Part shown: in pieces, positions 48,100-58,346 of the stretch | Layout of the letters: every line of letters begins with the position of its first letter | Numbering within the stretch: the stretch's first letter is position 1 | Source of the DNA: Eubacteriales bacterium | Lineage (GTDB): Bacteria; Bacillota; Clostridia; Oscillospirales; CAG-272 | DNA length: 64,000 bases | Reading direction: 5' to 3' | Assembly (NCBI GenBank): GCA_045636465.1 | Contig: JAZTXP010000013.1 | Location: forward strand, 24,686-88,685 | The notes under the pieces: model-generated | Databases searched by the model: none | What the model saw: only the letters and a program-made list of their open reading frames with translations | What the model was told of the DNA's origin: nothing | Translations under genes and position numbers: made by a program

Positions 48100-49899
48100 T
48101 TATTTATTGTTATAAATTTCTCTGAACTGACGGACGCAGGATGCGAAGTCCTCGATCGCGCCGTTAATAACCTCGGGAGAGGTCATATCGATGCCTGCAA
48201 CCTTAAGGCTATCAAGAGGAGACTTGGAATCGCCGCACTTGAGGAAATCGATATACTGATTTACGTAGGACGGGCCCTCGGTTTCGATTCTCTTTACGAT
48301 TGCGGATGCCGCGGAAATGCAGGTAGCGTACTTATATACGTAGAAGCTGGTGTAGAAATGAGGAATTCTCATCCATTCGAAGGCGATCTGGCGGTCGATT
48401 GCCACCTTGGGGCCGAAATACTTGCGAACAAGCTTCTTATAATGGGTATTGATAACGTCGGCAGTGAGAGGAGTTCCCTTCTCTGTCATCGCGTGCATAT
48501 CGCGCTCAAACTCCGCAAACATAGTCTGACGGTAGAGAGTTCCCTTATAGGTCTCGATAAGCTGATTGAGGATATAGAGCTTCTCCTCCGCGCTTTCGCA
48601 CTCTGCAAGCTTTCTGTGAGCCATAAGAAGCTCGTTAACGGTAGATGCAACCTCTGCAACGAAGATGGTGTAACCTGCATTATGAGGCTCGTTGTAGGTG
48701 TTTGAGAAATAGGTATGCATAGAGTGACCTGCCTCGTGGGCAAGAGTGGACACGTCGTTGAAGGTTTCGGTGTAGTTCATAAGGATGTAGGGCTCTGTGC
48801 CGGGGCAGCCTGAGCTGAATGCGCCGCCTCTTTTACCCTTTGCGGGATAAACGTCTACCCATCCGCGCTCGGTGAGACCGGCTTTAAGGGTGGAGTGATA
48901 CTCTTCGCCGAATACCTCTGCGGTCTTGATAACCTCTTCAACCGCCTCCTCGTAGGTGTACTTCTTGTCAAGCTCGCCGATAAGGGGCGCGTAGAGATCA
49001 TACATATGAAGCTTGTCAACACCAAGAACCTCGCGCTTGAGATCATAGTAATCATAAAGGGCGGGGAGCCCCTTGTGAACCGACTTAATAAGATTATTAT
49101 AAATGGTAGGATCTACCTCATCACGGAAGGTGGAGGCGGTGATGGAATTTTTAAAGTTGCGAATCTTCGCCATAGCGCATCTTTCCTTAACGTGAGATGC
49201 AAAGAGAGTGGCAAAGGTGTTACCAAACTGCTCGTAGGTCTTGTAAAGAGTGCGGAAGGCAGACTGGCGAACGCGGCGGTCGGGACTCATAAGCATAGTA
49301 ACATAGCTCGCATCCTCAATCTGCACCATATTGCCTTTTTCATCCTTAATCTTGCCAAATTGTAAATCAGAGTTTGCAAAAATGCTACGAACTTGGCTGT
49401 TCGAACCAAGAGCATCACTCACCTTTGTCATAAGCTTTTCACATTCATCGGAGAGAGTGTGCTTCTTTTCAGCCTGGCTTTTCTCTATCATTCTGCGGAA
49501 GGATTCAAGGCGAGGCTCTACTGCGAACCAGGACTCAACAACCTTGGAATCAAGCTTGATAAGATAGGGGGATACGAACCAGGTAGTCTGCCCCATCATT
49601 ACCGAGAGGTTTCTTACTCTCGCATTCATCGCCTGATATGCGTTGTTGGAGCTGTCGGTAGCAAAGTGAAGAGATGCATACTGCCAGAGTCTTTCAAGCT
49701 TCTCAATAAGAGTAGCCATATCGCGAAGAGCCTCATAGAGAGCGGTAGCGGAGCCGGTCATAGTTTTTTCGTGCTTTGCATAGTCACGTGCCATCTCCTC
49801 TGCCAGCTTCAAATCAGCATTAAAATCATCCTCCGTTTTGTATATTACGGTGAGATCCCACTTATATTTTGCGGGAACGTCTTTTCTGTCAAGTGCCAT
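48100..49899 (-). CDS. pepF: Oligoendopeptidase F (M3B metallopeptidase)
   Basis: 599 aa. HEAGHSMH zinc motif and typical PepF N-terminus (KYKWDLTVIY). Confidence 0.95.
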   Translation of the reverse strand: MALDRKDVPAKYKWDLTVIYKTEDDFNADLKLAEEMARDYAKHEKTMTGSATALYEALRDMATLIEKLERLWQYASLHFATDSSNNAYQAMNARVRNLSVMMGQTTWFVSPYLIKLDSKVVESWFAVEPRLESFRRMIEKSQAEKKHTLSDECEKLMTKVSDALGSNSQVRSIFANSDLQFGKIKDEKGNMVQIEDASYVTMLMSPDRRVRQSAFRTLYKTYEQFGNTFATLFASHVKERCAMAKIRNFKNSITASTFRDEVDPTIYNNLIKSVHKGLPALYDYYDLKREVLGVDKLHMYDLYAPLIGELDKKYTYEEAVEEVIKTAEVFGEEYHSTLKAGLTERGWVDVYPAKGKRGGAFSSGCPGTEPYILMNYTETFNDVSTLAHEAGHSMHTYFSNTYNEPHNAGYTIFVAEVASTVNELLMAHRKLAECESAEEKLYILNQLIETYKGTLYRQTMFAEFERDMHAMTEKGTPLTADVINTHYKKLVRKYFGPKVAIDRQIAFEWMRIPHFYTSFYVYKYATCISAASAIVKRIETEGPSYVNQYIDFLKCGDSKSPLDSLKVAGIDMTSPEVINGAIEDFASCVRQFREIYNNK

Positions 49900-50121
49900 T
49901 TTTTATACTTCCTTTCGGGATTATTTTTAAGTATATAAATATCATATCAGCATTTTATGGAAAAATCAATAGCAAAGAACAAAAAAGTTAAAAAATTCAC
50001 ATATTAGTGCTTTGTTTTTACCGCGTTTTCTCCGCCCCTGAATGTTTTTCAAAAACGTGAAAGAGAGTCGAATTCATTTTTTTACGTTTCACTAACCTAC
50101 AGAGCGTGTTTCGGGAGACGC

Positions 50122-50151
50122 AAAAATGCCCCGAACCGCAAGATCCGAGGC
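50122..50151 (-). terminator. Probable terminator after the ZIP transporter gene
   Basis: On the minus strand: GCCTCGGA-TCTTGCGG-TTCGGGGC (8 bp including two G-U pairs) followed by ATTTTTG. Confidence 0.5.
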
Positions 50152-50222
50152 AATCTCAGTATTAAGATTTGTTTGGATTTTTCTAATACTTTTCCACCCT
50201 AACTATTGATAAATAGGCAGAT

Positions 50223-51029
50223 TTATAAGAAGAAATCCATAACCAGCATTACCGCAAAGCCCACCAGAAGCGAATATGTGGCGGCTCGCTGGTATCCGTG
50301 TTCATGTGTTTCGGGAATCATCTCGTCGGAAATAACATAAAGCATTGTTCCGCCTGCAAAGGCAAGAGCAAAGGGGAGAATTGCCGATGCCATGTGCACG
50401 GCAAAGTAACCGATAAATGTTCCGAACACCTCTACAAGTCCGGTCAGGGATGCATAGAGGAAGGTTTTCTTCGGGCTCACGCCTGCGGAAAGCATAGGCG
50501 CGATAATTACCATGCCCTCAGGGATATTCTGCAGAGCAATACCGAGAGCTATCATAAAAGCCTCGGCATTATTTCCCGAGCCGAATCCCACTCCGGCGGC
50601 TATCCCTTCAGGGAGATTGTGGATAGCAATAGCAAGAACAAACAAAAGAACCTTATTGACTCTGGCATCATTATTACTTACACTTAGGAGGGCTTTATCA
50701 ACCACATCATTGCCCCTATGCTCCTCGTTTTCCCCACCGTCGGGGTTATGAAGATGAGGCACCAGCTTATCAAGAAGGCTTATAACGAGAGCGCCAAGGA
50801 ATATACCGGCAACGGTGATAATTATAGCAGGCCAACCCACCATTTCCTCGCCGTATTCCAGTGACGGAATGATAAGCCCAAGTACCGCTGCCGCAAGCAT
50901 TATTCCGGCAGCAAAGGCAAGGATTATATCGCTGAATTTATGAGATATTTCCTTAAAGCAGAAGCCTATAACAGCACCTATGACTGTTGCTCCTCCTACT
51001 CCAAGAGCAGTAATTAAAACTATTTCCAT
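50223..51029 (-). CDS. zupT: ZIP-family divalent metal (zinc) transporter
   Basis: 268 aa, 8 TM. Conserved HNLPEGIA and QNIPEGM motifs. His/Glu/Asp-rich cytoplasmic loop (HLHNPDGGENEEHRGND). Confidence 0.9.
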   Translation of the reverse strand: MEIVLITALGVGGATVIGAVIGFCFKEISHKFSDIILAFAAGIMLAAAVLGLIIPSLEYGEEMVGWPAIIITVAGIFLGALVISLLDKLVPHLHNPDGGENEEHRGNDVVDKALLSVSNNDARVNKVLLFVLAIAIHNLPEGIAAGVGFGSGNNAEAFMIALGIALQNIPEGMVIIAPMLSAGVSPKKTFLYASLTGLVEVFGTFIGYFAVHMASAILPFALAFAGGTMLYVISDEMIPETHEHGYQRAATYSLLVGFAVMLVMDFFL

Positions 51030-51154
51030 ATTTTATTTCCTTTGGTTAACGTTTATTGAAAAACGCGAGACTTTCGCTATTTCATTTTATGCAAAAACAA
51101 GTTTTTGGTGACAAATATGGGATTTTGTAATGCAAAGTTTACATATTCGCAGAT

Positions 51155-54100
51155 TTATCTGAATTTCTTAATCAGAACAAAAGCAATAAGAGCCATTAAA
51201 GCAACAGAGGAGATAACAATCACTACTATGACCAAGGTGCTATCCGAGCCGCCAAGAGGATCGATATGCTCGCTCTCGATCTCGCCGCAGATCTGACATT
51301 CGCGGCTCTTTATTCCTTCGGCATCCTCTGTAGGCTCAAGGACTGTATAATACTCACCAAACCTATGCTCGGAGGGTTCTCTCACCCAGCCGCACACATT
51401 GCATTTTTCGTCACAATCATTATCATACCGATGATGCGAGATCTCTCTTACCTCGCCGCAAAGATTACAGTCCTTATCGCAGGCATTGTCATATCCATGA
51501 CCCAACACTTCTCTTTCGATACTGCATTCATTGCACTCCGAGTCACACACGTTATCGTATACGTGATCTCCTACAGAACGGATAGCTTTACAAAGGTCGC
51601 AATCTATATCACAATTATTGCTGAAGCTGTGAGACAAAGACGGATTTAGTGCCGCACCGCAGGAATCGCAGACCTCGTCGCACCCCGAGGCAGGAAGGTG
51701 AGGTATGTTATTCCTCGCTGTGCCACAATTTTTGCAGCTTGCCGAGCAATGGCTTTCATATTCGTGCTTAGTATCCTCTCTCACTGCATGGCACTCGTTG
51801 CAAATGCTGTCGCAGGAGCCGTCGTAAACGTGATCACTCCGAAGTCTTTCTTCAGAGCAAACGTTACAAATCGCATCACAGTTATTATCATAGGTATGGG
51901 ATGCAGAAGCTTGATGCCAAACTCCGCAAATATCGCAATGTTCGTCACAAACGTAGCTATAAACATGCCCCTCTGTCTCGCGTATAGATTCGCAAACGTT
52001 GCAATCAATATCGCAGGCATTGGTGTAGGTATGGGACGCGCCGTTTGTATCGCGCTCAAGACCGCAGTCTTTGTTGCAAATGGCATCGCAGTCGCCGCTG
52101 AAACTATGCTCGGTAGAACGTGCAAATTCGCATTCATTACATTCACTGTCGCAATCGTTGTCGAAATTGTGAGGAACATCTATGCGGATATATCCACAGC
52201 CGAGACATCTGTTGCCACAGGGCTCGTTATACGTATGGATTATCTCACGGATCGTACCGCAAAGGTCACATATCTCATCACAAGAGCCCGAATAGGAGTG
52301 ATCAGAGGGGACGCGCGCGGCTCCGCATACAGAGCATATCGCATCCTTACAAGAGGCAAAGCTATGGGGCTCGGATTCTCTCACTTCACCGCAATAGACG
52401 CATTCGGCAGAACAGGCATGAGGGTAAAGATGCTCAGAGGAAATCCTCTCCGCTCCACAGAGATCACACCGGCTATCGCACTCATATTCGTAGCTATGAG
52501 GCTCTGCCTCGCGCACCTCGCCGCACTCGCTGCAATCAGTGTCGCAATCAGATAAATAGTAATGATCTCCAACCTCTCGGGTTTGTCCGCACACGTTACA
52601 GTCGCTATCGCATAAATTAAGGTAGGTATGCTTCTCTGCTTCACGGATGGCTCCGCACACGGCGCAAGCCTCGGAGCAGGAGTGCGGATAAACGTGAAAA
52701 TCATCTCTTATTTCACCGCAAACATTGCAGTCCCCGTCGCAAACGTTATCGTACTTATGACCGATAACCGACCTAGAAAATCCGCAAAGATTGCAATCTA
52801 TATCAAAGCAAGATGAGAATTTATGAGGCGCGCTGTCACGAAGTGCAGAACATATATTACAATCGGGATCACAATCGCCGTCGTAACTATGCTCTACTTT
52901 TCGAGTAAGTCCACAGCCTCCACAGGTATCATCACAGATCTCGTCATAATAATGTATCGCTTCACGCATCTCACCGCAAATATCACAACTTTCGTCGCAA
53001 TTGTCAATATAAGTGTGCATTTTTGTGGCGTTTCTCTCCAAATTACAAAAATCACAAAATTGAGAGCATTCAAACTTGTATAGATGATCGGGATAAATTA
53101 CAGTATCGCCTTCGGTATTTGAATAAACCTCATTGCGAGACTCCGATCCGGGGCAATCGTATGTATAAGAGACAAAAACCCTGTTTCCGAAGAAGGCGGG
53201 CAACCCGCATCCGACGGTCTGGAAATAGACCTCTCCGCCGCTGTTCAGAAGATAGCAAACCTCGCCGGAAAGAAAGGCATCTCTAGTCCTACAGCTTGTC
53301 CCGCCTATATTGTCAAGCTCTTCATTTGCAAGGTAATAATTGTCGGTATGCTCCCCGCCCGCTCCGGGCGCTGAGATGATCGGTCCGTTTATTTCTCCTA
53401 TAACATTTCCTGCGAAATAGCAATATTTTATTTCTCCTATAGATTCCGCGGCAATTCCGCCTGCATGTCTCAGCGATCCTGCCACCGCATCAAAGCCGCC
53501 AAAGCAGTAGCTGATAACGCCGCTATTAAGCCCTGCAATGCCTCCGGCATAATCTTGAGCTTGCGCACCGGCAGCAAATTCGGTTTCAATAATCGTTCCA
53601 TAGTTTAGCCCTGCTACACCGCCTGCCCATTCTTCGGCATAAGCGCCGCCCTACAGTAACTGTGACGTCTCTGATTTCTCCGCAATTCACACCCGCCAGA
53701 GTACCCGCGGTATTTGCCGACGTATAAACGTAAGAGTCGCTTACAGTAAGATTTCTAACCGCGCCTCCCTCCTCGATAATGCGTATCATACCGACGTTAT
53801 CGGAATCGGCTTTTGCATAGATACCGCTGACGGTATGTCCGCCGCCGTCAAGGACACCAGAGAAGGAGGGGATCATAGCCCACTCACGAATACGTAAGCC
53901 GAGAGGCAAGCTGGGCTCACCCGTCACGGGATCAATGATAATGCTAGCGGTAAGATCAGCATTTATTTCAATGTCGGCAACCATAAGACCACATATATCC
54001 GAGTTGGTCTTCGCCTCATTTGCAAACCAAAAAAGATCGTCCGCATCAGCGATCCTGTAGTATCCGAAATATTCCTTGCCAAGCTCCTCGTAGCTCCCTT

Positions 54101-54254
54101 GCCCAATGATCGCGGGCCGATCCTCTGCCGCAAGAGAAGCGCCATCGCCTATACCAAGCGACAGGGAGGCCACAAGGCAAAGCATAATCACCGCCCCCAT
54201 TTTAGTCAGTGCAAGAATAATTTTTTGAATAAATCCTTTTAGCAGTCTGTTCAT
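51155..54254 (-). pseudogene. Large surface protein gene (signal peptide, GLUG-like region, ~26 His/Cys3 repeats, C-terminal TM anchor) interrupted by a single +1/-1 frameshift near 53650
   Basis: ORF 53586-54254 carries the signal peptide and head domain but ends in out-of-frame-looking residues (GRRLCRRMGRRCSRAKLWNDY). The neighbouring frame is open from 53650 down to 51155. It continues with GGAYAEEWAGGVAGLNYG..., matching the repeat pattern of the N-terminal part. A 1-nt change in the GGG run (53649-51 on the + strand) restores one ORF of about 1030 codons. Confidence 0.75.
51266..53086 (-). repeat. About 26 tandem coding repeats of ~66 bp (21-25 codons): H-x-[YF]-x3-C-D-x2-C-x2-C-G-x2-R
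   Basis: Counted directly in the 776-aa translation from HLYKFECSQFCDFCNLER to HRYDNDCDEKCNVCGWVRE. H-x6-C-x3-C-x2-C spacing is conserved in nearly all units. Confidence 0.9.
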
Positions 54255-54381
54255 CTAAGTCACCTTCTTAATCTTCATAATTTTCAAGTCGCGGAAGTAC
54301 AAAGGTCCGCAAAAAGCAACAGAGGCTGTCTCAAATCAATTCTGAGGCGGCCTCTCTTGCTTGGAATATGGTCTTTTAAAA

Positions 54382-55341
54382 TCATTCGGTCTTTATCTTT
54401 TTGCCCTCATATTTTCTGTTCAGCCCGGAAAGAAGCCTTGCCAAAGCAATTCCTGCCGCTATGCAAAGCGTATTTATCACGGCCGAAAGGATGGATGTAC
54501 CAAAGCTCTCAAAGGGAATAATAACCGCAGTAGCCGCAATAACCACACCTACCACGATATTCTGTGCCACCGAATAATGCTTGTCAAAGAGACCCGATAT
54601 AAGCCTAGAGAAGGCTATGAAGGTTACCAGCGCACCTATTCCTGCCGGTATAAGAACTGCCATGTCAAAATCGCCTATGCCCTGCACAAATGGAGTATAA
54701 AGTCCAAGAGGCATCAGCATAGTGGAGAAGCTCATACCCGGCACGATGACGCTGAATGCAAGAGCGCAGCCGCAAAGAATATACCAAAGGAAATTCGGCT
54801 GTATCTCAACACTCATAGCGCGAAGGGATACCAATATACTAAGCACAACAACACAGGAAAGAGCAAGTCCAAGATAAGAAAGCACTCTGTTTTTCCCCTT
54901 GCCTACAGAAACAAAAAGCGAGGGGAGCATACCTGCAACCAGGCCTATGAAAACGCAAGTACAGGGCGCTTCAAATCTTGTAAGAAGCATTTCCAGCATT
55001 TTTGATACGCCCCAGAATCCTATGAATATGCCAACTATATAGGGCATAAGTATTTTCAGCTTGCTTTTGAGATTCAAGAAGGGATGTGATATAAAATCCA
55101 TAACCACAGGGTAGATGCCAAAGATTACGCAAAGAACTCCGCCGGAAACGCCGGGCAAAACCGCACCCACGCCTATGAGAATTCCGCACAGAAGCTTCAG
55201 TGCAATCCTTGTCATAAGACTTCCTTCATTGCTCTCAAGCCGCTCTCTAATCTTATCAAGCTCGTTTTTAACCCCGTGAACAGCGGCCCCGTTCTGTCGA
55301 TCCGCCTCGCCGGGTTCTTTAACCTTTTTAGATTCTTCCAC
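54382..55341 (-). CDS. DUF368-family membrane protein (family recently linked to polyprenyl/undecaprenyl-phosphate translocation)
   Basis: 319 aa, multi-TM, with duplicated G(V/M)SGG-type motifs (LPGVSGGVLCVIFGIY, VPGMSFSTMLM). The N-terminal ~40 aa are hydrophilic. Confidence 0.75.
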   Translation of the reverse strand: MEESKKVKEPGEADRQNGAAVHGVKNELDKIRERLESNEGSLMTRIALKLLCGILIGVGAVLPGVSGGVLCVIFGIYPVVMDFISHPFLNLKSKLKILMPYIVGIFIGFWGVSKMLEMLLTRFEAPCTCVFIGLVAGMLPSLFVSVGKGKNRVLSYLGLALSCVVVLSILVSLRAMSVEIQPNFLWYILCGCALAFSVIVPGMSFSTMLMPLGLYTPFVQGIGDFDMAVLIPAGIGALVTFIAFSRLISGLFDKHYSVAQNIVVGVVIAATAVIIPFESFGTSILSAVINTLCIAAGIALARLLSGLNRKYEGKKIKTE

Positions 55342-55428
55342 CTTGTTTTTTCCTCTATTTTATAAAGTTTTGTTTACATTTTGCCTTATTAAGCAAAGCC
55401 AAACATTCTCAACTTTTTTGAGATAAAT

Positions 55429-55983
55429 CTATTTTACATTTCTCTTTGAGGGAGTAGTGAAGTCCTCCTCGGTTCTTGTATCGCTATGATCGCAAAAGAA
55501 GAACATCATATCTATTATTGACTTGTCATAGGAAATAAATTCCCTGCGGTCGATCATTTCGTGGATCTTCTCCCTCGATGCCCAAGCGACCCTCTCAACC
55601 TCCTCGTACTGAAGAGAAAGACTGTCAAGATCCACGTCCATATTAAGAAGATAGAAATCGGCAAATACAGAATCAAATGTAAATGCCACCTTTGGAGCAA
55701 TACCCGCGAGAGATATCTCCAAGCCAAGCTCCTCCCGCACCTCGCGCTCTGCTGCAGTTCTGTTATCATCTCCGGCGATTGCCGCACCGCCTACGGTAAT
55801 ATCCCATAGTCCCGACCAGCCCTGCTTAAAGGGTTGTCTTTTCTGTATAAGCATCTCGCCTTTAGAATTAAAGATACAAATTCCGACCACCAGGCGGTAA
55901 TACCCTTCCGGCGTTTTTTCACCTCGAACCATCTTTTTATCTGTGAGTTTTCTGTCTACGTCGTAGAGATCCCAAATCTCCAT
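55429..55983 (-). CDS. NUDIX hydrolase
   Basis: 184 aa. Nudix box GGAAIAGDDNRTAAEREVREELGL. Confidence 0.85.
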   Translation of the reverse strand: MEIWDLYDVDRKLTDKKMVRGEKTPEGYYRLVVGICIFNSKGEMLIQKRQPFKQGWSGLWDITVGGAAIAGDDNRTAAEREVREELGLEISLAGIAPKVAFTFDSVFADFYLLNMDVDLDSLSLQYEEVERVAWASREKIHEMIDRREFISYDKSIIDMMFFFCDHSDTRTEEDFTTPSKRNVK

Positions 55984-56061: not shown

Positions 56062-56937
56062 TTATAAGGCGCTGTCCTCTTCTGCAATTTCTGCTTCAGC
56101 CTCGGGAGCCACATCGTCCTCAGGCTCGTCAGCGCTATCCGTCTCCTCTGCTTCCTCGGGTTGTTCACCGGACTCTTCGAACTCTGCCACGTCCTCTGTG
56201 ACGGGCTCTTCTGCATCTTCGAGCTCAATAGCTTCATCGGTTTCAGCCTCCTCCGGCTGCACCTCTGCCTCGCAATGACTCTGTGCTTCGTCACTTTCTG
56301 GTGCGTCCTCTTCCCTCTCGTGCTCGCAAGCCTCGGCAGCAGCTTCATCGGGAGAATCTATGCTAAAATTAGGATCAGGCTCTGCATAATCAACCTTCAA
56401 TTCGCCATAGCCCTCCTCTGCGAGAACCTCGTCTGCCCAGGTATCATTTTCATCGGGAACAAAATCTTCGCCGGGGTTATATTCATCAGCGCGGGGCTCA
56501 GCCTCAGGCTGAGATGCCTCTTCCACTACAATCTTTTTCGCATTTTTCTTAGCTTCTCTTGCCTTCTCCACTCTATCCATCTTCGCGAAGGTAAAGCCAA
56601 AGAGAGATGCAAGCGCACCTATTACAACAAGGGCAATCGAGAACGTGCCGTAGGTTGCCCACTCAACGAGAGAGATACCCACGCCGTAAGCGATAGGCAA
56701 AAGCCACATCCAGCCCTTGGGTGCTTTCTTTATGGTTGCTGTATAGGATGCGACCAATGCGCAAACGGGCAACACCAGCCATCGCATCGCCACAAGATAT
56801 ACCTTAACCCATTCCACGTCCGGTAATATACGAAACAGTATTATAGCCGAAAGTGCAAGAACTCCAAAAATAGCTGAAAAAATTATAAGGGGTAAATTTC
56901 TTTCCTTTGTAGATCTATTTTCCATAATAACCTCCAT
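56062..56937 (-). CDS. Membrane protein with a long polyacidic, disordered C-terminal tail
   Basis: 291 aa. Four TM segments in the first ~125 aa, a basic juxtamembrane patch (KAREAKKNAKK), then about 155 residues dominated by E/D/A/P. Confidence 0.6.
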   Translation of the reverse strand: MEVIMENRSTKERNLPLIIFSAIFGVLALSAIILFRILPDVEWVKVYLVAMRWLVLPVCALVASYTATIKKAPKGWMWLLPIAYGVGISLVEWATYGTFSIALVVIGALASLFGFTFAKMDRVEKAREAKKNAKKIVVEEASQPEAEPRADEYNPGEDFVPDENDTWADEVLAEEGYGELKVDYAEPDPNFSIDSPDEAAAEACEHEREEDAPESDEAQSHCEAEVQPEEAETDEAIELEDAEEPVTEDVAEFEESGEQPEEAEETDSADEPEDDVAPEAEAEIAEEDSAL

Positions 56938-57965: not shown

Positions 57966-58346
57966 ATGAAAGATGTTAAATTCTATATTTGTGAAACATG
58001 CGGAAAGGTTATCCAGATCGTTGAGGACAGACGCGTTCCCACTATCTGCTGCGGAAAGCCTATGCAGCTGCTTGAAGCAGGCACAGTTGATGCCAGCCGC
58101 GAAAAACATATTCCCGAGGTAGAGATCGACGGCGACCTTCTCCACGTAACTGTAGGCGCAGTTCTCCATCCTATGACAGAGCCTCACCACATCGCTTGGA
58201 TCTACGTCCAGTTTGAGAACGGCGGTCAGCTCGTTTACCTTGATCACGAGGGCGAGCCCAAGGCAACGGTTGCTCTTGGCGGCAAGAAGCCCGTAGCAGT
58301 TTACGAATACTGCAACCTCCACGGTCTTTGGAAGAAAGAGCTTTAA
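57966..58346 (+). CDS. dfx: Desulfoferrodoxin (2Fe superoxide reductase)
   Basis: 126 aa. N-terminal desulforedoxin-like CxxC...CC (CETCGKV...TICCG) and a C-terminal SOR domain (KHIPEV, HPM, HHIAWI, CNLHG). Confidence 0.9.
   Translation: MKDVKFYICETCGKVIQIVEDRRVPTICCGKPMQLLEAGTVDASREKHIPEVEIDGDLLHVTVGAVLHPMTEPHHIAWIYVQFENGGQLVYLDHEGEPKATVALGGKKPVAVYEYCNLHGLWKKEL

Follow-up and report, generated by a model that had tools for sequence, protein, structure and literature searches.

A candidate metal-stapled stalk of 22-residue His/Cys repeats in surface proteins of gut Clostridia

The locus and an interrupted surface-protein gene

Within a 64,000-nt stretch of DNA from an Eubacteriales bacterium (contig JAZTXP010000013.1; hereafter the window, in which all coordinates are counted), the minus strand between 51155 and 54254 carries a gene for a surface protein with a long, cysteine-rich repeat stalk. 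Tandem units, each bearing one His and three Cys, lead into a degenerate cap and a C-terminal membrane anchor. From the way in which these residues are kept, lost, and replaced among homologues, we favor on balance the view that the stalk is a series of interlocked Cys3His sites, probably occupied by zinc, which would form a continuous rod that holds a GLUG-type head off the cell. Once a single surplus base has been removed, the gene is laid out as follows (residue numbers are those of the repaired protein; P0001 is an intact orthologue).

54132..54254, minus strand: start codon and Sec-type signal peptide, about residues 1–41 (MNRLLKGFIQK...SLGIGDGASLA), read from the translation, with an approximate cleavage site
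53652..54131, minus strand: N-terminal part of the predicted GLUG beta-helix head, in the ATG frame, residues 42–201; 60% identical to P0001
53649..53651, minus strand: frameshift site, GGG in place of the GG of an intact reading, a surplus base that splits the gene
53087..53650, minus strand: C-terminal part of the head, in the second frame, residues 202–389, with the motifs AGGVAGLNYG, AGGIAGLNSG, and AGGIAAESIG
51368..53086, minus strand: 26 tandem units of 21–25 residues, H-x-[YF]-x3-C-D-x2-C-x2-C-G-x2-R, with one rubredoxin-type CxxCG knuckle each
51266..51367, minus strand: degenerate C-terminal cap unit, HRFGEYYTVLEPTEDAEGIKSRECQICGEIESEH, with a His and a CxxCG knuckle around an inserted hairpin and no first Cys
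51158..51241, minus strand: C-terminal transmembrane helix STLVIVVIVISSVALMALIAFVL (51241–51173), then a basic tail, IKKFR; the stop codon is at 51157–51155

The repaired product thus reads as a putative type-I membrane protein with a signal peptide, a GLUG head, an acidic stalk, and one transmembrane helix. This architecture had been proposed in a preliminary description of the same DNA, and its Sec-type signal peptide, GLUG-like head motifs, long repeat stalk, and single C-terminal transmembrane helix are all present as described there. The leader, read from the translation, has no twin-arginine motif, and an N-terminal hydrophobic segment is found in 191 of 225 family members. The head (~350 residues) contains a conserved C-P-G Cys 27–28 residues upstream of the first repeat His. 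The stalk, ~615 residues long, is strongly acidic (net charge about −82), with 13% Cys and 5.7% His, and it ends in a cap (HRFGEYY...ECQICGEIESEH, 51367–51266) that is kept in P0001–P0010.

What had been described as one protein across 51155–54254 proves, on translation of the frames, to occupy two reading frames rather than a single open reading frame (ORF); the two had been joined silently across a frameshift at 53651–53649. The frame that begins with the ATG at 54254 meets a stop at 53586 and yields a product of 222 amino acids (aa), while the repeat frame is open from 53650 to 51158 (776 aa) and is closed upstream by a TAG at 53653–53651; the frames overlap at GTT ACT GTA GGG CGG. Dropping one G from the GGG gives VTV-GGAYAEEWAGG, which matches VVV-GGASSGYLAGG of the intact 989-aa orthologue P0001 (junction sequence VVVGGASSGYLAGG), so that ...DVTVTV-GGAYAEEWAGGVAGLNYG... 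pairs residue for residue with ...DVKVVV-GGASSGYLAGGIVGENQG... of that protein. The repaired protein has 1032 aa. Four syntenic orthologues, P0001, P0002, P0003, and P0006, are intact, have 855–989 aa, and lie in collinear loci.

The interruption may be either a recent inactivating mutation or a base-calling error. It appears to be part of the deposited assembly, because the 222-aa fragment exists as a separate NCBI-derived record (P0227), which covers 46% of the head query with 100% identity. We give somewhat less than even chances to the locus being a recently inactivated pseudogene, in which the extra G is real, only a secreted 222-aa fragment is made, and the stalk goes unexpressed. Beyond the record in the assembly, such a reading draws on the full length of the five neighboring genes compared with orthologous loci, from which the local error rate looks low, and on the frequency with which surface proteins are lost. 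Against it, the 776-codon downstream frame is fully open and keeps its ligands in 26 of 26 units, so that any inactivation would have to be very recent, and a single-base error in the G run may account for the extra base. Programmed frameshifting or phase variation at the GGG was rejected, as the run is just 3 nt, too short for phase variation, and has no slippery heptamer.

A widespread repeat and its relatives

On the minus-strand translation, a loose regular expression (H.[YFP].{2,5}C.{2,4}C.{2,4}C) detects 26 consecutive units of 21–25 aa, running from 53086 to 51368; 2000 shuffles of the same protein gave a mean of 0.12 motif matches and a maximum of 2. The approximately 26 tandem His+Cys3 units of the preliminary description are therefore real, with the degenerate cap in addition, and a His and three Cys are present in 26 of 26 window units. 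The register H1/C7/C11/C14 is canonical in 23 units, the first Cys falls at position 6 in two, and one has a C-x3-C knuckle; the spacing from His to first Cys, initially given as x6, is x5. Protein identity between the units is 45%, or 29% outside the ligands, DNA identity is 50% with a maximum of 70%, and Tandem Repeats Finder (TRF) reports no DNA tandem repeat at the array. An assembly artefact through collapse or expansion, which had been named in advance as a finding that would undo the repeat, is excluded by this divergence and by the lack of a TRF array.

Beyond the window, 595 canonical units from 106 independent representatives share the consensus H-[VTI]-Y-D-N-[AD]-C-D-x-x-C-N-x-C-G-x-x-R-x-[VP]-x-x. 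Conservation in these units reaches 98% for D8, 97% for R18, 94% for Y3, and 89% for N12, His1, C7, C11, and C14 being fixed by the selection pattern with which the units were gathered. All 20 ligand columns are invariant in 71 five-unit blocks (alignment A1).

The repeat is a widespread module that has no curated family among the libraries searched. Pfam-A and NCBIfam returned nothing above threshold for it, whether in the window protein or in strongly consensus-like homologues, and Pfam gave no hit to it even at E ≤ 1 in the window protein or five homologues. PDB sequences, searched with phmmer and with a profile, yielded nothing at E ≤ 10, and PDB folds no match above threshold for the repeat unit. 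In the full-text literature, searched among other things for literal motif strings, no description of the repeat was found. The first impression that it could not be placed in any named family has accordingly held, as have the distinctions drawn at that time from the Myxococcus cysteine repeat, EGF/furin-like repeats, and the CxxC...CxxC zinc ribbon. The Myxococcus cysteine-rich repeat (PF13948, DUF4215; CGDG..ECDDGN unit) and eukaryotic EGF/furin-like repeats are likewise short, Cys-rich tandem units in secreted proteins, but, unlike the present repeat, they have an even number of Cys that form disulfides and no invariant His. The former is ruled out by the empty Pfam search at E ≤ 1 in the window protein and five homologues; EGF, furin-like, and TNFR disulfide repeats are disfavored by the three Cys and one His of each unit, by the 3n−1 Cys of each stalk, and by the replacement of Cys by His, as well as by the lack of a Pfam hit. 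The zinc ribbon families (the Pfam Zn_ribbon series, DZR, and others), which call for two CxxC/CxxH knuckles per zinc and a match to a hidden Markov model or fold, do not include the repeat. The radical SAM or Fe-S CX3CX2C class has an identical spacing but was set aside, given that there is no PF04055 or other Fe-S hit and that the leader lacks a twin-arginine motif.

The repeat is not a trait of this one protein alone; it is widespread in Oscillospirales-type gut Clostridia, on many different heads. One sequence search recovered 510 proteins with the repeat, in which its partners include BspA-type LRR, dockerin, cohesin, SLH, SH3, NlpC/P60, M23, CAP, transglutaminase-like, fn3, and Big_2 domains. 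Out of 1.84 billion cluster representatives, a profile of five-unit blocks matched 2,270 at E ≤ 1e-3, of which 535 reached E ≤ 1e-30; some of the proteins exceed 6,000 aa, and every match that bears a name comes from a metagenome-assembled genome of gut Clostridia. Across one genome per GTDB species, two 8-residue patterns alone led to 333 confirmed repeat stretches in a scan that used a tight 6-block alignment; an earlier genome scan with a single protein as query had given no match. The best 80 of these 333 stretches all lie in metagenome-assembled genomes labelled Acutalibacteraceae, Oscillospiraceae, Eubacteriales, Faecousia, Ruminococcus, Clostridium sp., Bacillota, or 'Clostridia bacterium', and many of the 80 originate from ruminant guts. 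The repeat was not found in a scan of viral contigs.

Family members differ in size and in the make-up of their units. Six giant proteins (P0121, P0123, P0131, P0158, P0165, and P0208) measure 4,400–6,700 aa, with up to ~46 short units and up to 34 matched five-unit stretches. In the homologues P0015, P0020, P0022, P0027, and P0030, the 22-aa unit alternates with longer variant units, one of ~45 aa with the pattern H-x-[FW]-...-P-x-x-C-(hairpin)-C-x2-C-G-...-A-L-x-H and another with H...H-W-x-x-C-x2-C; these longer units have no Pfam or NCBIfam match.

Probable metal ligands and the proposed coupling of neighboring units

How the ligands behave across homologues was assessed in a first set of sequences and in an independent replicate set of 106 representatives outside it. 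Among units that are followed by another unit, the first set has 1196 with Cys7 only, 21 with only a tail Cys, which lies 2–3 residues before the next His (C-x-H), 3 with both, and 15 with neither (Fisher p = 8e-33); most of the last 15, as listed, have a His at position 7 or an H-x-H before the next unit. The replicate set displays the same compensation (1042 with Cys7 only, 8 with both, 13 with neither, and 20 with the tail Cys only; p = 1e-27), a His substitute being present in 10 of the 13. Cys7 is absent from 62/73 last units in the first set and 66/74 in the replicate, that is, from 85–89%, as against 36/1252 and 33/1083 of non-last units, or ~3% (replicate p = 6e-73). Conversely, an extra Cys or His within 6 residues upstream accompanies 63/110 and 57/86 first units but only 24/1202 and 15/1050 internal ones (p = 7e-57 and 6e-60). 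The window stalk contains 80 Cys for its 27 knuckles, a count of 3n−1, and, by our count of variant knuckles, this rule fits most GLUG-head orthologues.

Metal sites typically allow a ligand Cys to be exchanged for His, a swap that is not typical of disulfides. Like structural Cys3His zinc sites, the repeat has four conserved ligands per site and tolerates such an exchange. The odd Cys count, the invariant His, the exchange itself, and the relocation of ligands are the features to be expected of a metal site and not of disulfides. Together they favor one four-ligand metal site per unit, and the comparative ligand statistics lend strong support to metal ligation, which the preliminary description had considered at least as plausible as disulfides. 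A module stapled by disulfides, its cysteines oxidized outside the cell as in EGF or furin-like repeats, would suit an extracellular, Cys-rich protein; three Cys per unit, the 3n−1 total, a His that is invariant and elsewhere stands in for Cys, and an anaerobic host with a desulfoferrodoxin gene (57966–58346) make it hardly credible.

Covariation offers a view of how the units are joined. Mutual information with average product correction was computed over 623 non-identical three-unit blocks (effective number of sequences 440), with a background standard deviation of 0.018 and a 99th percentile of 0.060. Within a unit, positions 4 and 12 score 0.13–0.18 and positions 2 and 13 score 0.03–0.06. 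Between units, position 6, adjacent to Cys7, has a score of 0.10 with position 13 of the unit that follows, and this in each of the two independent column pairs, whereas the same pair within its own unit or in reverse order, with the previous unit, scores −0.02 to −0.04. Position 20 also pairs with position 13 of the next unit (0.08–0.09), and position 6 with its position 2 (0.06). The hairpin pair 10–17, assigned by DSSP and used as a positive control, scores 0.05–0.075, so the method does detect a known contact. Within a unit, positions 5 and 6 are further coupled to positions 20 and 21, which explains how a Cys at about position 21 could replace Cys7. An AlphaFold2 (AF2) model of units 7–11 (pLDDT 93, pTM 0.59) has almost no regular secondary structure apart from a beta bridge between positions 10 and 17, as would be expected of small metal-stabilized knuckles.

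These observations suggest that Cys7 serves the following unit, because it is dispensable where no unit follows, while the first unit needs a surrogate. Each unit would supply its His1 and, on a very small hairpin formed by residues 10–17, the rubredoxin-type knuckle C11-x2-C14-G, and the site of unit i+1 would be composed of Cys7 of unit i together with His1, Cys11, and Cys14 of unit i+1. Every knuckle would then be a loop flanked by two ligands of the site that follows, and the resulting cross-brace would be open-ended. In the window, Cys7 of unit 26 would complete the cap, which has a His and CxxC but lacks a first Cys, and at the other end the C-P-G Cys conserved in the head, 27–28 residues upstream, may serve the first unit. 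Twenty-seven sites, from 26 units of 22 residues plus the cap, would in this way be cross-braced into one continuous metal-stapled rod. The stalk had at first been likened to beads on a string; ligand bookkeeping and covariation point, probably, to an interlocked rod instead. The opposite assignment, in which C7, C11, and C14 of one unit join His1 of the next, was rejected, since terminal units keep their His and knuckle with no His following and since covariation ties positions 2 and 4 to the knuckle within the same unit.

Independent beads are nevertheless the most serious competitor on this point, although we regard them as unlikely. Each 22-aa unit would be a mini zinc finger using its own His1, Cys7, Cys11, and Cys14, joined to the next by a flexible linker. 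Four ligands within 14 residues would make such a unit feasible, and the pTM of just 0.59 in a model with a pLDDT of 93 is in keeping with it. It is difficult, however, to reconcile with the specific loss of Cys7 in terminal units (85–89% vs. 3%), with the gain of upstream Cys or His by first units, with a cap that has no first Cys, or with the covariation of the residue beside Cys7, which links it to the following knuckle but not to that of its own unit. Several observations nonetheless speak against the interlocked arrangement or temper the support for it. In the ~45-aa variant units of homologues, a single hairpin lies between the first Cys and the CxxC, in the manner of a classical zinc ribbon, which alone would suggest a site within the unit. 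About 10 of the first units with an upstream Cys are lipoproteins, whose lipobox Cys lies at −6, and are to be discounted, and 47/110 first units have no obvious upstream ligand. The statistics come from related, internally duplicated sequences, so that the p-values overstate independence; the site itself is deduced from such statistics, and AF2 models no ions. Finally, the window copy is frameshifted, and the full-length protein may not be made from this gene.

As to the metal, Zn2+ would be the most likely, acquired outside the cell after Sec export. The chain is presumably exported unfolded because its leader is of the Sec type and lacks a twin-arginine motif. Unfolded Sec export favors a spontaneously loading metal such as Zn2+ over Fe-S clusters. 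Of the earlier proposal of Zn or Fe ligation, then, the metal part is upheld by the ligand statistics, while the iron part fares poorly in light of the Sec-type leader; iron is disfavored, with mononuclear Fe as a possible form. Iron sites, either rubredoxin-like Fe(Cys)3His or clusters on CX3CX2C, could in principle make of the stalk a redox chain, with 27 centers relaying electrons from the membrane through the wall as a cytochrome-free analogue, in gut Clostridia, of multihaem nanowires. The CxxCG knuckle is the rubredoxin motif and C-x3-C-x2-C the radical-SAM spacing; the centers would follow one another at short, regular intervals, in an anaerobic habitat. Unfolded export through Sec, the lack of redox partner genes nearby, the fusions to dockerins, LRRs, and wall hydrolases that suggest a passive spacer, and the probable inability of a 22-aa unit to shield an Fe-S cluster leave this extracellular wire very improbable. 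A related but slightly less far-fetched idea, which we also consider improbable, is that the His/Cys-rich array is a surface zinc sponge feeding the adjacent ZIP transporter. A ZIP-family permease gene (50223–51029; Pfam E = 3e-32) lies directly downstream of the target gene in the window, as it does in 4/4 orthologous loci, and the array would carry ~27 metal ions per molecule. The whole neighborhood is collinear, however, so that this adjacency counts as one observation, and a ZIP gene lies within 4 kb in 0/79 other repeat-encoding loci, on which basis a functional linkage to ZIP was rejected as a general feature. The ZIP gene moreover has its own conserved palindrome and −10-like element, many unrelated heads and anchors are found joined to the repeat, and a fixed fold is indicated by conservation outside the ligands, at Y3, D8, N12, and R18.

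The interlocked zinc sites that we favor have precedents in two respects. With the rubredoxin-type zinc knuckle, or zinc-ribbon fold group, the unit shares a short beta-hairpin (DSSP bridge 10–17) with a C-x2-C-G turn as its tip and, by prediction, a tetrahedral four-ligand site with Cys/His interchange. In RING, PHD, FYVE, and the DnaJ cysteine-rich domain, ligands of neighboring sites interleave along the chain and the sites brace each other. The present repeat would resemble these in its interleaving, as deduced from end effects and covariation, but they are closed intracellular domains with two metals, whereas the array here would be open-ended through 14–46 sites and form an extracellular rod; the repeat resembles them in neither sequence nor fold.

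The head, the spacer, and the genomic neighborhood

The head belongs to a recognizable structural class. Segment 53486–53641 of the window scores 19.3 bits against Pfam Glug (PF07581; E = 0.0014), compared with a gathering score of 20.5 bits, and precomputed PF07581 hits are on record for the orthologue P0004 and for most remote head homologues. The head of the P0001 orthologue, 60% identical to the window head over the first 202 aa, is modeled by AF2 as a beta-helix (pLDDT 93, pTM 0.91). Foldseek aligns this model over its full length with PDB 3n6z ('putative IgA1 protease' BACOVA_03286 of B. ovatus; E = 5e-7, TM 0.57–0.59) and also with 6xjb, the non-catalytic beta-helix of the S. pneumoniae IgA1 protease (E = 2.6e-4); the model superposes on solved GLUG domains, and GLUG motifs are present in the head. 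IgA1 protease has an M26 metalloprotease domain, which the present protein lacks. The repaired 1032-aa protein contains no HExxH (HE..H) motif and no peptidase family in Pfam, and an M26 IgA1-specific metalloprotease was ruled out on these grounds. Because that motif is missing, the head is presumably a GLUG-type ligand-binding domain and not a protease.

The heads and anchors joined to the repeat are varied, the number of units is variable (14 to 27 knuckles among proteins with this head), and non-ligand residues are conserved. For these reasons we infer that the stalk may be a generic rigid spacer, a rod that would carry its head across the wall to the far side, tens of nanometers away from the membrane. 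The N-terminal hydrophobic segments of most family members and the low identity of this protein to its orthologues fit such an extracellular role. The layout of an N-terminal head, a variable-length repeat stalk, and a C-terminal anchor is that of the 'periscope' proteins on Gram-positive surfaces (SasG/Aap G5-E, Rib, and SHIRT), with their rod-like stalks, and the window protein has the same order of parts, with a stalk whose rigidity is predicted. Periscope stalks, however, consist of beta-rich domains of 70–130 aa with no structural metal per unit, compared with 22-aa Cys/His-rich units here, and their DNA repeats are often near-identical, in contrast to the 50% DNA identity (maximum 70%) and the lack of a TRF array in the present case, in which copy number differs between species-level orthologues. 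The repeat joins two known ideas, zinc knuckles and surface stalk repeats.

In the orthologous loci, the genes follow a collinear order: NUDIX, (peptidase S51), VCA0040-like, target, ZIP, oligoendopeptidase F (PepF), and SBP_bac_5. The window neighbors (48100–51029 and 54382–55983) are 92–97% identical to their orthologues for PepF, 84–90% for Zip, 87–90% for NUDIX, and 70–76% for the VCA0040-like protein, whereas the target is only 39–60% identical to its own. Judging from this difference, the target is a fast-evolving surface protein, whose divergence seems strongly accelerated while the ligand positions stay fixed.

Several features of the neighborhood deserve mention in their own right. 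A GC-rich hairpin (agaggc...gcctct) with a T-run, at 54300–54360 on the minus strand, lies between the VCA0040-like gene and the target, just upstream of the target start. It is absent from the terminator listing of the consensus scanner, and it is probably the terminator of the VCA0040-like gene; the surface-protein gene would therefore probably have a promoter of its own. Between the target stop and the ZIP start, at 51126–51143 on the minus strand, there is an inverted repeat, TGTAAA-N6-TTTACA, which in the window reads TGTAAACTTTGCATTACA; after it come a conserved TTTATCAC and a −10-like CATAAAAT. The inverted repeat is kept in the window and the four orthologous loci, and the whole looks like an operator and promoter for the ZIP gene. 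The Firmicutes-type Zur box, which we take to be TCGTAAT-N-ATTACGA, was not seen upstream of the ZIP gene, where the conserved palindrome differs from it. A peptidase S51 gene (241–242 aa, so annotated in 3/4 orthologous loci) sits between the NUDIX and VCA0040-like genes there; in the window, the gap between these two genes is only 87 bp (55342–55428) and the peptidase gene is absent. At 56062–56937 on the minus strand, a 291-aa protein begins with membrane segments, ends in a long E/A/P-rich tail that is extremely acidic, and has no Pfam hit; its counterparts in orthologous loci, of 284 to 354 aa, are likewise without a hit. On the plus strand, a 126-aa ORF (57966–58346) with an N-terminal CxxC...CC reads as a desulfoferrodoxin-type superoxide reductase, its orthologue having PF01880, and such a gene fits an oxygen-sensitive anaerobic host. 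Rfam has no match in the window.

If the proposed arrangement is true, the 22-residue unit would be among the smallest repeating structural units that build a bacterial surface stalk, and it would represent a rare case of structural sites of the zinc-finger type outside the cell. An open-ended chain of cross-braced metal sites would have no counterpart among the solved structures searched. Questions would follow as to how, in strict anaerobes, a Sec-exported protein comes to be loaded with dozens of metal ions, whether metal availability or oxidation governs the integrity of the stalk, and whether rigid spacers could be designed from the unit. Thousands of unannotated surface proteins in uncultured Oscillospirales-type gut bacteria are marked by the module, among them adhesin-like, cellulosomal, and cell-wall-hydrolase proteins, and a curated family model would at once improve the annotation of rumen and gut metagenomes.

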